Of a stretch of 32,000 nt of DNA, positions 8,353 through 32,000 are shown one piece after another (the stretch's first letter is position 1; every line of letters starts with the position of its first letter). The DNA is from an uncultured Opitutales bacterium (lineage in GTDB: Bacteria; Verrucomicrobiota; Verrucomicrobiia; Opitutales; Intestinicryptomonadaceae). Made by a program: the position numbers and the translations under genes. The notes below the pieces were generated by a model. The model saw only the letters and a program-made list of their open reading frames with translations. It was not told where the DNA came from and did not search any database. The stretch lies in the NCBI GenBank assembly GCA_934613415.1, contig CAKTSY010000002.1, positions 390,001-422,000 of the forward strand. Reading direction: 5' to 3'.

Positions 8353-10833
8353 ATGAAAAAGAAGTACATATTTATCTTTATAATTGCAGTGTGCGCTGTA
8401 TTTGCATTTTTTGCAAAAAGCAATTCGGATACCGACAAGCAAGCGGTTTGTTTGGACGGCGACGACTGGAAGCTTTCGTATGCAAAGCAGCCGTTTTCGG
8501 GAGCGGCAAAAAGCCCCGAAGAGTTTAAGCTGCTAAAAGACGTTAAAACCGTAAAGGCAAAAGTTCCCGGCAACTGCGAGCTGGATTTGCAAAAAGCCGG
8601 CGTTTTGCCCGACCTGCAAAAGGGCGACAATATATATTTGTTTAGACCTTTCGAGGGCTATCAGTGGCTGTATTCAAAGAAATTTAAAGCCCCCGATTTT
8701 AACGAAAAACAAAAGCTGTTTATAAACTTTGGCGGGATAGACACTTTGGGAGACGTTTTTGTAAACGGGCATCTTGTAGGCAGCAGCGACAATATGTTTG
8801 TTTCGCAAAAATTTGATATTAGCAATGTTGTAAACAAAGGCGTCGAAAATTTGCTAGAGGTTGTACTGCGCTCGCCCGTAATAGAAAGCGCAAAGTACGA
8901 CGACATTGCAGGCTCATCGGGCGGCAACCGTGCCGAGCTTATACATATAAGAAAAGCCCCTGCGTCTTTCGGGTGGGATATTCACCCTAGGCTTGTAAAC
9001 TGCGGCTTGTTTAAGTCGGTTTCTTTGCAGGAAGAAAACGAGATTGCGATTTCGGAATTTTACCCATTTACTTTGTATGTAGAGCCTTCAAAGAATAGGG
9101 CAATGCTGGCAATCGATTTAAAAATTCAAGCTCCTTTCGAAGAGCTAGACAAGCTTACCGTGAAAATTTCGGTTGGCAAAGACGGCAAGGAAATTGCTTC
9201 GTATACTAAAAAGCCTCTTTCGTACAATGTTAAAGACGCGCGCTGGATAAGCGGCGTAGACTTGTGGTATCCGCGCGGCTACGGCGAGCAACCGCTATAC
9301 GACATAAAAGTTGGGCTATTGGATAAATCCGGCAAAACGCTTGCCGAGTGCCAAAAGAAAATGGGCTTTAGAACCCTAAGGCTTGAATTTTCGGAAATAG
9401 AGCTAAGCGACGAGGCCTCTAAAAAAGTTACCACAAGCCGAAACGGCGAGGCCTTTGGCGATGTAGACGAAAATTCTCTTAAGGGCGAATTTAAGTTTTA
9501 TGTAAACGATGTTCCAATATTTATAAGGGGCACAAACTGGGTGCCGTTAGACGCCTCGCATAGCAGAGATTTGCAGCACGTTCAAAGCGCAATGGATATG
9601 CTTGTTGACTTAAACTGCAATATGGTTAGGTGTTGGGGCGGCAATGTGTACGAAAGCGAAAAGTTTTTCGACCTATGCGACAAATACGGCATTTTGGTTT
9701 GGCAGGACTTTGCAATGGGCTGCTCTGTTTACCCGCAAACCGAAGAGTTTTACAAAAAGATAAGAAAAGAGGTTGCCTTTCAGGTAAAGAGGCTAAGGCA
9801 CAGGACTTCGCTTGCATTATATGCGGGCAATAACGAAAACGACCAAGCCTATAACTGGCGCATAAGGGAAAAGATGTTTGCTCCGCAGCACGACACTTTA
9901 AGCCGCGATGTAATACCCGCGGTTATAAGGGAATACGACTGGATTATCCCATATTTGCCGAGCTCGCCGTATATGTCGGAAAAAACCGTTGTGCAAAATA
10001 AGAAATTTGCCCCGCCCGAAGCGCACTTGTGGGGGCCTAGGGGCTATTATAAAATTCCCTTCTACACAAACGCAATTTGCAGGTTTGTAAGCGAAATTGG
10101 CTATCACGGCTGCCCAAATAAAAGCAGCCTGCAAAAGATGATGGACAAAGATTATGTGTATCCGTTTGTAAAGGGCAAAGACTTTGAATTTAACAAGCAG
10201 TGGCAGTGCAAGGCGGTTATGCCCTATAGAGACGGCGACACCGAAGCTCGCCGCAATATGCTTATGGTAAACCAAATAAAGCACTTATTCGGCGAATGCC
10301 CAAAAGATTTAGACGAATTTATTTTTGCCTCGCAAAGCGTGCAAGCCGAGGCAAAAAAATATTTTATAGAGCACTGGCGCAGCCAAAAATTTGCCGCAAA
10401 AACGGGCATAATTTGGTGGAATTTGCGAGATGCCTGGCCCATTTTGTCGGACGCTATTGTAGACTACTACAATTCTAAAAAGCTTGCCTACTACTATATA
10501 AAGCGCGCGCAAAAAACGGTGTGCTGTATGGTAAACGACAAATTAGAGCTTGTTGCGGTAAACGATTCTTTAAAACCCGCAAAAGGAAGCGTAAAGGTTG
10601 TAGATATAGATTCTAACAAAGAATTGTTTAGCGGCGAATTTGCCGTAAATGCAAATTCTAAAGGCGTTATTGCAAAACTAAAGCAACCTACAGCGCAGGG
10701 AATGTTGCTTATAACGTACAAAGAGCAAAACGAAAAAGACGAAAATCTAAACCACTATATGTACGGCAAGCCGCCCTTTAAACTTGCCGGCTATAAAAAG
10801 TGGAACAAGGCTTTAAAGATAGTAAGAGACTAA
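8353..10833 (+). CDS. glycoside hydrolase family 2, beta-mannosidase-like (826 aa), secreted or membrane-anchored
   Basis: The start is taken at MKKKYIFIFIIAVCAVFAFFAKS (signal/anchor) rather than the track's 8284. GH2 beta-mannosidase-type motifs are present: CNMVRCWGGNVYESEKFFDLCDKYGILVWQDFAMGC, the acid/base region YAGNNEN and the nucleophile region FVSEIGYHGCP. Confidence 0.85.
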   Translation: MKKKYIFIFIIAVCAVFAFFAKSNSDTDKQAVCLDGDDWKLSYAKQPFSGAAKSPEEFKLLKDVKTVKAKVPGNCELDLQKAGVLPDLQKGDNIYLFRPFEGYQWLYSKKFKAPDFNEKQKLFINFGGIDTLGDVFVNGHLVGSSDNMFVSQKFDISNVVNKGVENLLEVVLRSPVIESAKYDDIAGSSGGNRAELIHIRKAPASFGWDIHPRLVNCGLFKSVSLQEENEIAISEFYPFTLYVEPSKNRAMLAIDLKIQAPFEELDKLTVKISVGKDGKEIASYTKKPLSYNVKDARWISGVDLWYPRGYGEQPLYDIKVGLLDKSGKTLAECQKKMGFRTLRLEFSEIELSDEASKKVTTSRNGEAFGDVDENSLKGEFKFYVNDVPIFIRGTNWVPLDASHSRDLQHVQSAMDMLVDLNCNMVRCWGGNVYESEKFFDLCDKYGILVWQDFAMGCSVYPQTEEFYKKIRKEVAFQVKRLRHRTSLALYAGNNENDQAYNWRIREKMFAPQHDTLSRDVIPAVIREYDWIIPYLPSSPYMSEKTVVQNKKFAPPEAHLWGPRGYYKIPFYTNAICRFVSEIGYHGCPNKSSLQKMMDKDYVYPFVKGKDFEFNKQWQCKAVMPYRDGDTEARRNMLMVNQIKHLFGECPKDLDEFIFASQSVQAEAKKYFIEHWRSQKFAAKTGIIWWNLRDAWPILSDAIVDYYNSKKLAYYYIKRAQKTVCCMVNDKLELVAVNDSLKPAKGSVKVVDIDSNKELFSGEFAVNANSKGVIAKLKQPTAQGMLLITYKEQNEKDENLNHYMYGKPPFKLAGYKKWNKALKIVRD

Positions 10834-10924
10834 ATTTTGCCGGACGCTTCGTCGAATTAAGGCGGGGCGTTTTTTTATAAAATTTATGCTTTAACAAACA
10901 AACTCAGCATGGCATAGTTCTTAT

Positions 10925-11503
10925 ATGGAATTAAGTTTGCCTTTGGTTTTCGAAATTTTGGGGTTGGCTGCGTTTGCAACGTCGGGAGCGTTGGCTGCTT
11001 TTAAGAAAGATTTGGACATTGTCGGCTTTATTTTTGTTGCCACTTTTACGGGCATTGGCGGCGGAACGATAAGAGACGTAATTTTAAATCGTAACGTGTT
11101 TTGGCTGCACGACGCCTATTTATATTCGCTTAACATTTGCATAGCTTGCGCGGTTTTAACCTACATTGTTTCAAGGTTCATTCAAAAGCGCGAAAATATA
11201 GTAAACTGGTTCGACGCCGCCGGTTTGGCGTTATTTTCGGTGCAAGGCTACATGATTTCGCAAAGCGTTGTAAATTCGGGCGAAGTTGCCGTTGTTATGG
11301 GCTTGTTTACGGGTTGCGGCGGAGGCCTTTTGCGCGACATTGCATTAAACAGGCGGCCGTTCATATTCAGAGGAGAATTGTATGCGACAAATTCCATTAT
11401 AGGGCTTTTGTTTTTGCATTTTACGAATATGCCGGTGCTTGCGTTCCTGATAATTTTTGCGTTGAGGGCGGCAACCATAAAATATAAATGGAGTTTAAAA
11501 TAG
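10925..11503 (+). CDS. TRIC / UPF0126 (YadS-type) trimeric cation channel family membrane protein (192 aa)
   Basis: Two internal repeats each carry the glycine-rich signature: GIGGGTIRDV and GCGGGLLRDI. About 7 TM helices. Confidence 0.8.
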   Translation: MELSLPLVFEILGLAAFATSGALAAFKKDLDIVGFIFVATFTGIGGGTIRDVILNRNVFWLHDAYLYSLNICIACAVLTYIVSRFIQKRENIVNWFDAAGLALFSVQGYMISQSVVNSGEVAVVMGLFTGCGGGLLRDIALNRRPFIFRGELYATNSIIGLLFLHFTNMPVLAFLIIFALRAATIKYKWSLK

Positions 11504-19172: not shown

Positions 19173-20435
19173 ATGAACAGCATAAACAACAAAGTTATAG
19201 CAGCCTCGCTAGGCTCGATTTTAACTATGGCTACTTTTGCCAATGCACAAGAAGCCGTACAAACTCTGGCAAAAGAGGAAGCGCCGCAGTCGTGGTACGA
19301 ACGCGACAGCCTCTTTTTGGCTTCGGCAACCGAAAGCGTTTCCGAAAAGACGGGCTTTACCCCCGCCCTTACCTGGACGGGAGAAGTTTGGGGCGACGTT
19401 TCCAATAAAAACAATATGAATTCGTTTGTAGACTCGCTCTTTACTATAGAAGTAGAGCAGGATTTGTCGGTATTGTCGGGCAAAGACAATATGGGCAGAA
19501 TCGGCGTTAGCGCATTCTACTACAACCAAACCCACGGCGGCGCGTTGGAAAATGTAGACTCTTCGCAAGGCTACATAAGCAACATTGTTGCCGGCGATAT
19601 GGCAAGGGTTTTCGAAATCTACTACGCCAACGAATTCGAAACAAAGGCTGGTACTTTCGGCTTTAGAATAGGCCAGCTTGCAGCCGACGAAGACTTTATG
19701 GGTATGGATTATTCCGACACATTCTTGAATTCGTCTTTCGGCGCAATGCCCAACATTGCTCCCGGCAATTTGTTCTCGCAATACAACGTTGCAACTCTTG
19801 GTTTGGTTGTATACTACACCTACGACAATTTCGACGCAACGTTCGGCGTATATAACGGCAACATCGGCGAAGACATTTCTTCGAACAACGGTTTCGACTA
19901 TAAAAATACTTTCGACACGGTTGCATTTTGGTATCAGTTCGGCTACAACTACAAAGTTGGCGGATTGGACGGCCGCGTAATGGTTGGTGGCAACTATCAC
20001 AGCGACCCGAGCAAGGCTAACTTCGAACAAGGCACAAAAAGCAACTTCTATTCGTTCTATGCAGGCATTCAGCAGGCACTGGTTAACGACGACGAAGGCA
20101 ACGCAAAATTCGGCGTATACGGCAGAGTTGGCTTCGTTCCCGATGCAGAACAATCGGACAACAACTTCTATGCCGACTTCGGCTTTAACTGGTTTGCCCC
20201 CATTCCCTGCAGAGAAAACGACGTATTTGCGGCAGGCTTTTCGGTTATAGAAAACGAAAGAACGGCCCGCGACGACTATGCGCACTACGAAGGTACTTTG
20301 GAAGTTACATACAGATGCCAAATTACCCCCGCAATCTCGTTCCAGCCCGATTTCCAAATTTACTTTAACCCGGCAACTCGCGACGACTGCGGCGCAGTAT
20401 ATGTAGCGGGCGCAAGGCTTGAAGTTGTATTCTAA
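19173..20435 (+). CDS. outer-membrane beta-barrel porin, OprB (carbohydrate-selective) family-like (420 aa)
   Basis: Signal peptide ...LTMATFANAQE, alternating aromatic/Gly beta-strand pattern and terminal ...ARLEVVF (C-terminal Phe). The OprB assignment rests on overall resemblance only. Confidence 0.6.
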   Translation: MNSINNKVIAASLGSILTMATFANAQEAVQTLAKEEAPQSWYERDSLFLASATESVSEKTGFTPALTWTGEVWGDVSNKNNMNSFVDSLFTIEVEQDLSVLSGKDNMGRIGVSAFYYNQTHGGALENVDSSQGYISNIVAGDMARVFEIYYANEFETKAGTFGFRIGQLAADEDFMGMDYSDTFLNSSFGAMPNIAPGNLFSQYNVATLGLVVYYTYDNFDATFGVYNGNIGEDISSNNGFDYKNTFDTVAFWYQFGYNYKVGGLDGRVMVGGNYHSDPSKANFEQGTKSNFYSFYAGIQQALVNDDEGNAKFGVYGRVGFVPDAEQSDNNFYADFGFNWFAPIPCRENDVFAAGFSVIENERTARDDYAHYEGTLEVTYRCQITPAISFQPDFQIYFNPATRDDCGAVYVAGARLEVVF

Positions 20436-20478
20436 AATTTCCTTTTTTGGTACGATTTTTATCTGTTGAACAATCTTC

Positions 20479-20510
20479 ATGCGCACTCTTTTAGGGTGCG
20501 CATTTTTTTT
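20479..20510 (+). terminator. rho-independent terminator after the porin gene
   Basis: Stem ATGCGCAC (20479-20486) / GTGCGCAT (20496-20503), running into T8. Confidence 0.65.
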
Positions 20511-31016: not shown

Positions 31017-31048
31017 AAAAAAAATTTCACACGGGTTCGTGTGAAATT
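31017..31048 (-). terminator. strong 12-bp hairpin with U-tail on the minus strand (orphan terminator-like element at the compositional boundary)
   Basis: AAATTTCACACG (31021-31032) - GGTT - CGTGTGAAATTT (31037-31048) is a perfect stem. On the minus strand the stem is followed by the complement of the A-run 31017-31023. No minus-strand ORF lies upstream of it. Confidence 0.45.
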
Positions 31049-31247
31049 TAAAACGCGGAGAGAGAGAGGGAATACACTGAAATTCACAAGTCGTTTATTA
31101 CCAGCAAGCAAATTTTAACGGCAAGCGTCAGTTGCATTTAGTTGTTTCATTCTTATTTAAGTAATTGTTTAATGTAGTAAAAAAGAGTCTATAACTTGAC
31201 GTTCAAAAAAAATCTGCTATTTTTGAGATTGCGATAAAGAAAGAGAG

Positions 31248-32000
31248 ATGGCATCTAAAGACCTAAATTTTCAGATAGAATTTTGCGCTGATTCAAAAGG
31301 ATATTTTGATAGAAAATGCCCTAAATGTGGATTGATTTTCGGAATAAAGTTAGCGGATTACAAATTACATAAAGGCAATATATTTTGCCCAATGTGTGGT
31401 TATTCGGAATCTTACAATAATAAAATATGGTTTACAGATAGACAAATATCTGAGATGAATGATCGAATTCGCAAACAAGCTACAGAATGGATTCACGATC
31501 GATTTAATGCTATTTTTAACAAATATCGGCATAATAGGAACGATATTATCAGTATATCGTATAAGCCAGAAAGACGTCCTATATTTAAAAATTATCCAAT
31601 TTTACAACCCAAAGAGTGGGATATAGAGATAAAATGTCAAAAATGCGGAAAGTCCTATAGTGTTATTGGGTCTGCTTTTTTCTGTCCGTTTTGTGGAGAA
31701 AACAATATAGAAGATATCTTTGAAAAGTCACTTATTGTAATTCGCCATAAGTTAAATTTTGAAAAAATATTTTATCATGACCTAAATAATATGACAGGAA
31801 ATGTCGCAATTGATTTTTCCAGATCTATTTTGGAACATTGTATATCTGAAGTCGTTTCATGTTTTCAGAAATTTGCTGAAACAATATTAAAAAACTTCAC
31901 TCAAGATCCTATACGTGTAAACGATTTTCAAATTATAAGAAGAGGGAATGAATTGTATGATAAATATACTGGGCATTCATATTTAGATTATATTTCCAAA
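31248..32000 (+). CDS. 5' part (251 codons, open at window end) of a protein with two CxxC...CxxC zinc ribbons and an alpha-helical continuation; unknown function
   Basis: It is absent from the supplied ORF track because it has no stop in the window. I translated ATG 31248 onward with no stop to 32000: MASKDLNFQIEFCADSKGYFDRKCPKCGLIFG...IFCPMCGYSE...IKCQKCGKSYSVIGSAFFCPFCGENN...FQIIRRGNELYDKYTGHSYLDYISK. A purine-rich AAAGAAAGAGAG lies just upstream, and a possible promoter is TTGACG (31196-31201)-N16-TATTTT. GC is about 27-30%, against about 48% for the rest of the window. Confidence 0.6.
   Translation, partial: MASKDLNFQIEFCADSKGYFDRKCPKCGLIFGIKLADYKLHKGNIFCPMCGYSESYNNKIWFTDRQISEMNDRIRKQATEWIHDRFNAIFNKYRHNRNDIISISYKPERRPIFKNYPILQPKEWDIEIKCQKCGKSYSVIGSAFFCPFCGENNIEDIFEKSLIVIRHKLNFEKIFYHDLNNMTGNVAIDFSRSILEHCISEVVSCFQKFAETILKNFTQDPIRVNDFQIIRRGNELYDKYTGHSYLDYISK

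Follow-up and report, generated by a model that had tools for sequence, protein, structure and literature searches.

P0001 is a 317-residue protein whose gene starts near the end of a 32,000-nucleotide stretch of DNA from an uncultured Opitutales bacterium (contig CAKTSY010000002.1, positions 390,001 to 422,000 of the forward strand; this whole stretch is called the window below), and it is probably a single-gene, restriction–modification (R-M)-linked abortive-infection RNase that carries a zinc-ribbon sensor. Two four-cysteine zinc ribbons precede an all-helical C-terminal domain, which is very likely a HEPN domain. The architecture, conservation, fold and genomic association of the P0001 family are documented here from its sequences, models and loci. 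An earlier reading of the window from its letters alone (the sequence-only reading) had proposed a defence protein in which zinc ribbons are fused to an Abi/HEPN-like effector, and this proposal is supported by the motif, the fold and the defence and mobile context of the gene.

The gene and its full-length product

The open reading frame (ORF) starts at the ATG at 31248 on the plus strand, with no earlier start codon between this ATG and an in-frame TAA at 31236-31238, and runs without a stop codon up to base 32000, in agreement with the earlier description of at least 251 codons open to the window end. The AT-rich setting described there was also recovered, with a guanine–cytosine (GC) content of ~0.29-0.31 across the ORF versus 0.42-0.48 upstream. 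The full-length sequence, which the sequence-only reading had called for, was obtained by a search of 5.8 billion proteins, in which P0001 was 100% identical over the window part. Based on the ORF reading and this full-length match, positions 31248 to 32000 (plus strand) hold the first 251 of the 317 codons of the double zinc-ribbon HEPN protein gene; the last 66 codons lie outside, and the stop codon would lie at window-equivalent 32199-32201, ~200 nt beyond the window end. On locus L001 the gene occupies 10001-10954, and a window coordinate equals the L001 coordinate plus 21247.

P0001 was found on 17-19 contigs, all from ENA metagenome assemblies and two of them labelled Hadza. The gene is called by public gene callers, and relatives of P0001 are named 'hypothetical protein' at NCBI. 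A scan for sigma-70 promoters and terminators gave nothing informative.

The C-terminal domain as a predicted HEPN RNase

The sequence-only reading had seen no R-x4-6-H motif in the part of the protein available to it, and the motif is indeed located only beyond the window end. R264-H265-L-L-E-H269 lies 13 codons past that end, at window-equivalent 32037-32054, in the context ...FKR-R264-H265-L-L-E-H269-NMGIVD... of P0001. R264, H265 and H269 are invariant across 28 aligned homologs (down to 29% identity), as are all eight cysteines of the ribbons. An exhaustive HMMER search supplied 135 near-full-length representatives; R264 is present in all 135, H265 and H269 in 134 each, and E196 in 130. 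The HLLEH string was also considered as an inverted zincin motif (HxxEH). This reading was dismissed, since position 268 (E268) can be E, Q, S or A, in contrast to the fixed R264, H265 and H269.

AlphaFold2 models were obtained for the full protein from the family alignment (predicted local distance difference test score, pLDDT, 86.1; predicted template-modelling score, pTM, 0.70) and, with 36 diverse sequences as input, for the isolated C-terminal domain (pLDDT 96.1, pTM 0.90). The order in the full model is ribbon 1 (residues 19-55), a helix (64-96), a linker, ribbon 2 (126-150) and then the all-helical C-terminal domain, confirming the helical region that had been predicted to follow ribbon 2. 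The domain model contains helix 1 (~154-180), helix 2 (184-215), helix 3 (251-269) and helix 4 (297-315), with a conserved helical insert at residues 224-241 (N225, F227, Q228) between helices 2 and 3. Helix 3 ends in R264-H265-x3-H269, and a loop precedes helix 4. The models, the conservation and the Foldseek matches given below place the N-terminal two-thirds of this HEPN-like domain, i.e., helix 1 (here residues 154-168), helix 2 (184-214) with E196 and the insert, at 31707 to 32000 (plus strand), and helix 3, which bears R264, H265 and H269, and helix 4 are encoded beyond the window end.

As defined in PMC3710099, a HEPN domain has a core of four helices, often with inserts between the second and the third. 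Its Rx4-6H motif is found where helix 3 ends and the loop to helix 4 begins, a polar residue (N, H or D) follows the Arg, and helix 2 bears an acidic residue that is conserved. Every structural and motif element of this definition is present in the domain model, where the polar residue right after the conserved Arg is H265 and the acidic residue in helix 2 is E196 (codon 31833-31835). The Foldseek comparison with the PDB that the sequence-only reading had recommended ranked HEPN toxins at the top for both the full-protein and the domain model, with 7ae6, 7ae2, 7bxo, 5yep, 6m6u, 3o10 (the sacsin HEPN domain), 1jog (HI0074) and 2hsb (AF_0298) as top matches. The HEPN matches had probabilities of up to 0.99 (0.54-0.99 for 7ae6, 5yep, 7ae2, 7bxo, 6m6u and 2hsb) and target-normalised TM-scores of 0.49-0.58, and most non-HEPN helical bundles stayed below a probability of 0.4. 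At the sequence level, sub-threshold matches to RiboL-PSP-HEPN covered the motif-bearing half (P0025 at E 0.0075; 2 of 36 C-terminal domains, best E 6.5e-4), one member gave a sub-threshold match to Swt1-HEPN (E 0.016), and no other interpretable Pfam family recurred in the member-by-member scans. The Pfam HEPN families that give these recurrent weak matches belong to one clade.

Several results, however, weigh against the proposed RNase. The E-values of the HEPN matches in Foldseek (0.04-0.5) are not significant alone, and four-helix bundles are an easy fold to match. No HEPN sequence model scored above its curated threshold in any scan (16-20 bits vs. a gathering threshold of 28). The domain-profile search of the 5.8 billion proteins yielded neither a match with a Pfam HEPN annotation nor bridging sequences, and searches of PDB sequences with the full-length and domain profiles gave nothing meaningful. 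HEPN homology is therefore argued from the motif, the topology, the structural ranking and the context, with the curated sequence score not in support, and on this balance the assignment is rated as very likely. As to the PDB profile matches themselves, these were a zinc-ribbon protein, 6htj (E 0.007), and spurious matches to designed pentatricopeptide (PPR) repeats, composed of many weak repeats, and both were discarded. A hidden Markov model (HMM) of the C-terminal domain, searched against 829 neighbour ORFs that include bona fide Pfam HEPN proteins, recovered only the family itself.

The sub-threshold HEPN evidence would also be compatible with a non-catalytic role, in which P0001 is a nucleic-acid-binding or regulatory R-M accessory, e.g., a restriction controller or a specificity cofactor, whose helical domain is a scaffold and whose ribbons bind DNA. 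Zinc ribbons commonly bind nucleic acids, and a subfamily of ~500 residues has winged-helix-like C-terminal extensions. However, R264, H265, H269 and E196 are conserved across phyla almost without exception, which speaks for catalytic residues and not for a scaffold; inactive HEPN domains lose these residues (PMC3710099), and many loci are without any R-M system. Such an accessory role is considered highly improbable.

The zinc-ribbon module

The two four-Cys ribbons claimed by the sequence-only reading are encoded exactly where it had placed them. Ribbon 1 (C24-x2-C27 ... C47-x2-C50; 31317 to 31397, plus strand) has its Cys codons at 31317-31319 for C24, 31386-31388 for C47 and 31395-31397 for C50, in addition to C27, and a conserved GYFDRxCP motif precedes it; Cys conservation and the AlphaFold2 model, which has beta-hairpins at residues 19-55, both define it. 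Ribbon 2 (C130-x2-C133 ... C146-x2-C149; 31635 to 31694, plus strand), defined by Cys conservation, has its codons at 31635-31637 for C130, 31683-31685 for C146 and 31692-31694 for C149, in addition to C133, and holds the family signature SVIGSAFFCPxCG. The spacing between the ribbons, given earlier as about 80 residues, is 79 residues between C50 and C130. In the model, a long connecting helix (residues 64-96; 31437 to 31535, plus strand) lies between the ribbons, and the linker that follows it (~residues 97-125) is of low confidence, with a pLDDT of 63-65 for residues 91-110.

Each of the eight cysteines is kept in 132-135 of the 135 representatives, and the ribbons are not a product of chance, because all eight are kept across the family. 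Pfam and NCBIfam gave only weak generic zinc-ribbon matches on the window protein. Ribbon 2 stays joined to the C-terminal domain in variants with another N-terminus (P0179, P0172). The ribbon module is probably a sensor or interaction module.

Family size, variants and library coverage

The exhaustive HMMER search returned 2,630 clusters at 50% identity with E ≤1e-3, 379 of them with E ≤1e-30, and a scan of species-representative genomes gave 175 relatives. These are found in Clostridia, Bacilli, Bacteroidota, Proteobacteria, Akkermansia, Victivallales and Kiritimatiellota, and also in Spirochaetes, Gastranaerophilales, Chloroflexi, Cloacimonadota and one ANME-1 archaeon. Seven IMG/VR viral contigs carry distant relatives, and tblastn against 50,697 phage genomes detected no relative.

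No model for the double-ribbon family exists in Pfam or NCBIfam. The single library match is to the PADLOC candidate PDC-M14A and spans residues 5-152 of the protein (E 7.1e-18 and 1.3e-17) and 148 of the 152 profile positions (3-150), i.e., the ribbon half alone; the C-terminal domain is without a model in any library searched. PDC-M14B was not found among 27 neighbour proteins scanned against PADLOC, and no mention of PDC-M14 was found in the literature. The PADLOC definition of PDC-M14 may differ from the arrangement observed here, because its name implies a multi-gene candidate and no M14B was found.

The conserved core of the family, judged from its sequence variants, is ribbon 2 together with the helical domain, since the variants keep both. 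In P0179 (495 residues), a ParB-like N-terminal region (motif DGRHRF) replaces ribbon 1, and ribbon 2 and the HEPN-like domain are kept. This N-terminus echoes the ParB-HEPN fusions of the Abi2/Swt1 group, which were listed in the 2013 HEPN survey (PMC3710099). The ~500-residue subfamily (P0048, P0059, P0083, P0108, P0115, P0132, P0148, P0152) carries a ~190-residue C-terminal extension with two winged-helix-like segments (e.g. ...LEILEDKGLIGLSY...), for which no Pfam match was obtained except a weak MarR_2 match in P0115. Matches to the N-terminal half only (P0139, P0149, P0160) were dismissed as variants, as they are mostly frameshifted reads, and the apparent fusions to biotin carboxylase in P0172 and to a GGDEF fragment in P0174 look like chimeras produced during assembly.

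Genomic neighbourhoods of the relatives

The inspection of neighbouring genes, another check proposed by the sequence-only reading, revealed R-M operons and defence islands around relatives in many phyla. ORFs were called in 80 genome loci and the 829 neighbours were clustered, the two largest clusters being, according to Pfam, type I HsdM/HsdS and HsdR. In 15 of the 80 loci the gene directly upstream belongs to the HsdM/HsdS cluster, and in 14 of these 15 it is separated from the family gene by -11 to +3 nt; hsdR lies directly downstream in 10 loci, with gaps of -25 to +17 nt, and is the upstream neighbour in 2. The typical overlap between the family gene (X) and hsdR is 4-25 nt. An EVE-domain AAA_5 (McrB-like) ATPase is the direct neighbour in 3 loci, with an 8-nt overlap, and other direct neighbours are type IIG Eco57I/MmeI-like enzymes, ResIII helicases, type III restriction enzymes and GmrSD/HEC-06-like type IV enzymes (2 loci each). 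Overall, an R-M gene (types I, IIG, III, and IV of the McrB/GmrSD kind) is the direct neighbour in at least 27 of the 80 loci. The remaining direct neighbours include Schlafen/AlbA_2, TIR, DUF4238, AbiH, Vsr, DUF499, AAA_13 and three other HEPN families; further loci contain an MmeI-like R-M system, Gabija with a reverse transcriptase (both also direct neighbours), or a PIN toxin-antitoxin pair with a serine recombinase.

Individual relatives illustrate this association. P0006 (69% identity; L103 5001-5987) and P0008 (52% identity; L104 3515-4516) share the gene order hsdM-hsdS-X-hsdR, in which X overlaps hsdS by 28 nt and hsdR by 4 nt; in L103, the gene after hsdR encodes a Fic domain. P0003 (86% identity) adjoins an MjaI-like type II R-M system. 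Many loci have no R-M neighbour, e.g., that of P0027, which lies between dnaK and an unknown gene. No conserved partner gene and no conserved small neighbour cluster was found across the 80 genome loci, and the family is a single-gene system because no partner gene is conserved. Separately, in three loci of Kiritimatiellota or uncultured bacteria (L066, L069, L077), a 139-residue protein matching PADLOC PDC-M11B (E 1.5e-38) is encoded directly upstream with a 24-nt gap, and PDC-M11B and the family gene may form a lineage-specific partnership.

The translationally coupled position between hsdS and hsdR mirrors that of prrC and brings in R-M status as an alternative trigger. In this narrower version of the preferred explanation, P0001 would be a PrrC-like R-M guard: the protein would bind the neighbouring R-M enzyme by way of the ribbon module and be held inactive, and phage anti-restriction proteins that disable this enzyme would release or activate the HEPN RNase, the trigger being R-M status and not a phage structural protein. 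The embedding in hsdS/hsdR with overlapping stop and start codons, seen in ~10-15 of the 80 loci and in close relatives, is the same as that of prrC in the EcoprrI locus; the Fic gene after hsdR in L103 is an association also noted for PrrC/RloC (PMC3710099), and the linkage extends across R-M types I, II, IIG, III and IV. However, binding to R-M types as unrelated as these five is unlikely for a single conserved ribbon module, and the loci without any R-M neighbour, such as that of P0027, are many. Moreover, the family has no ABC-ATPase domain, unlike PrrC, and the restriction gene is frameshifted in the window locus. Restricting the trigger to R-M status in this way is rated as rather unlikely.

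The window locus and its island

The P0001 gene stands at the head of an AT-rich mobile defence island, since R-M and recombinase genes lie downstream and ordinary metabolic and cell-envelope genes at higher GC lie upstream. Directly downstream on the same strand are an EcoRI-like restriction gene and an N6/N4 methyltransferase gene, followed further downstream by a 649-residue large serine recombinase, which bears out the recombinase-flanked setting described earlier, an AAA_14/DUF4143 ATPase, a Dam-like methylase and small unknown genes. A spacer of 127 nt separates the P0001 stop codon from the ATG of the EcoRI-like gene. The latter occupies L001 11082-11913, ~330 nt past the window end, with the same sequence in L002-L006, and is frameshifted at an A7 run (codons 3-5) in six of six independent assemblies; deletion of one A restores a full-length EcoRI-like ORF of ~277 residues (MAKKNQSNRLT...). 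The adjoining methyltransferase is intact. The EcoRI-like nuclease could be phase-variable or inactivated.

The mobile setting is also what an addiction-type reading would draw on, in which P0001 would serve as the toxin in a toxin-antitoxin module; the module would stabilise the R-M island or a mobile element, and P0001 would have no primary role in phage defence. A serine recombinase is present here, relaxase or type IV coupling protein (T4CP) genes occur in four loci, relatives are found on the seven IMG/VR viral contigs, and the HepT toxins of HEPN-MNT systems are the best structural matches. However, neither an MNT nucleotidyltransferase nor a conserved small antitoxin-like neighbour was found in >90 loci, and the family proteins, which include a sensor-like module, are twice as large as HepT. 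An addiction toxin is thought to be quite improbable.

The AAA_14/DUF4143 ATPase (L001 15904-17160), which lies between the large serine recombinase and the Dam-like methyltransferase, matches PADLOC PDC-S01 (E 1.5e-118), and because of its presence the island holds several defence candidates. A perfect hairpin with a 12-bp stem (AAATTTCACACGGGTTCGTGTGAAATTT) lies at window 31022-31049 (L001 9775-9802), exactly at the GC drop, and is followed by a short (GA)n run at ~31058-31069. It is terminator-like on the minus strand, with no gene upstream of it on that strand, and may be an island boundary or an attachment-site remnant. Elsewhere in the window, two ORFs of ~420 codons each, at 19173-20435 (plus strand) and 19221-20486 (minus strand), overlap almost fully, and likely at most one of them is a real gene.

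Proposed mechanism and its significance

Fusions of a HEPN RNase with a sensor domain are a proven abortive-infection design, as in RAZR, PrrC, Cas13 and Csm6. For P0001 we infer RNase activity, a trigger and an abortive outcome along the same lines. By analogy with characterised HEPN defence enzymes, P0001 would be latent in uninfected cells, and the ribbon module would sense phage infection or the loss of the adjoining R-M function. Two HEPN domains would then pair into a composite, metal-independent RNase site made up of R264 and H269, assisted by E196 and H265; a dimeric composite site of this kind is a feature of characterised HEPN enzymes (PMC3710099). Cleavage of RNA (tRNA, rRNA or mRNA) would stop translation and abort the infection.

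Two observations on the genes themselves count against this single-gene, R-M-linked RNase. First, PDC-M14 is by its name a candidate of several genes, and the 27 neighbour proteins scanned included no M14B. Second, functional coupling of P0001 with R-M is uncertain in the window locus, because the EcoRI-like gene is frameshifted in all assemblies.

A more general possibility, which we regard as doubtful, is that the ribbon module is a guard that reads the integrity of whichever R-M enzyme is co-encoded (types I, II, IIG, III or IV), or a binder of phage anti-restriction or ring-forming proteins, with the HEPN RNase switched on when restriction is subverted. If the guard reading is true, the family would constitute a PrrC-like second line of defence, free of an ATPase, across R-M types and phyla. 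To our knowledge, the PrrC paradigm has so far been based on a handful of examples, and a link to R-M status, if real, would extend it. Irrespective of the trigger, a family of ~2,600 clusters in many phyla has neither a name nor a literature, and the existing model omits its putative catalytic half. Recognition of the HEPN domain and of the R-M embedding provides a concrete hypothesis that is testable by point mutants, and would allow defence islands to be annotated better in genomes of gut and environmental origin.

Comparison with known systems

The HepT toxins (7ae6, 5yep, 7bxo) are the best structural matches of P0001, with probabilities up to 0.99 and target-normalised TM-scores of 0.53-0.58, and have, where helix 3 ends, an Rx4H-type active site like the one predicted for P0001. 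P0001 differs from HepT in having only 13-15% identity, no DUF86 match, an extra ribbon module of 150 residues and the conserved helical insert. No nucleotidyltransferase was found beside the family gene in the gene tables with precomputed Pfam annotation, nor among the 25 most frequent of 62 Pfam families in 83 direct-neighbour representatives, and identity with the HepT-MntA toxin was ruled out because no MNT gene is present. A component of CoCoNuT, i.e., CnuE with its winged helix-turn-helix (wHTH) and HEPN domains, was also set aside because of its different architecture. In the case of PADLOC PDC-M14, component A is matched and the C-terminal HEPN half lies outside the PDC-M14A model.

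Validated defence by a HEPN domain with a zinc finger is known from HEC-08 and from RAZR (PD-T7-4), a ring-activated zinc-finger RNase whose abortive-infection mechanism has been validated (Zhang et al., Nature 2026, PMC13017515). The specificity of RAZR is set by its Cys4 ribbon domain, which binds phage ring proteins, and its divergent HEPN domain cleaves single-stranded RNA (PMC13017515). P0001 likewise combines an N-terminal Cys4 zinc ribbon with a C-terminal divergent HEPN-like domain bearing Arg and His in one polypeptide, and is encoded by a stand-alone gene that is widespread across phyla; the Arg and His are essential in RAZR, and the role of infection sensor that its ribbon has would be that of the P0001 ribbons. 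However, P0001 carries two ribbons with a 33-residue helix between them, where RAZR has a single ribbon; the P0001 motif is R-H-x3-H (Rx4H), compared with R146...H154 in RAZR; and P0001 is ~100 residues longer, and its family shows a strong R-M operon embedding that is not reported for RAZR. PADLOC gave no match to PD-T7-4 at E up to 10, and Pfam gave no match to DUF4145 (PF13643) in six full-length proteins at E up to 1, nor was DUF4145 among the 25 listed of the 33 Pfam families matched by 36 C-terminal domains at the same limit. The RAZR structures 9Y9C and 9Y6U were absent from the top 50 fold matches.

PrrC and RloC are HEPN-type RNases encoded inside type I R-M operons between hsdS and hsdR (PMC3710099), an embedding found in relatives of P0001, and the window copy adjoins a type II R-M system. 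This position suggests that latency may be coupled to R-M and that activation may occur during phage attack. In contrast to the N-terminal ABC-ATPase of PrrC and RloC, P0001 has zinc ribbons in that place, and no ATPase domain was found in Pfam and NCBIfam scans of the family proteins; its family, unlike PrrC and RloC, also occurs beside type II, IIG, III and IV systems and often without R-M. P0001 therefore resembles both RAZR and PrrC and is a member of neither family, given the missing matches to PD-T7-4 and DUF4145, the absence of RAZR from the fold matches and the lack of an ABC-ATPase.

The Abi2/Swt1-like and RiboL-PSP HEPN families (PF18731, PF18735; Anantharaman et al. 2013) are the only Pfam HEPN models with recurrent weak matches, and the nearest sequence affinity of the family, at a sub-threshold level, is with the Abi2/Swt1/RiboL-PSP group; the P0001 family has no L-PSP domain. 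Zinc-ribbon fusion and R-M embedding in this group were already listed by the 2013 survey (PMC3710099). P0001 thus belongs to an uncharacterised, unnamed and widespread family, very likely of HEPN type, which is a promising and readily testable candidate for defence; its double-ribbon module is distinctive, and the concept itself will be unsurprising to a specialist.

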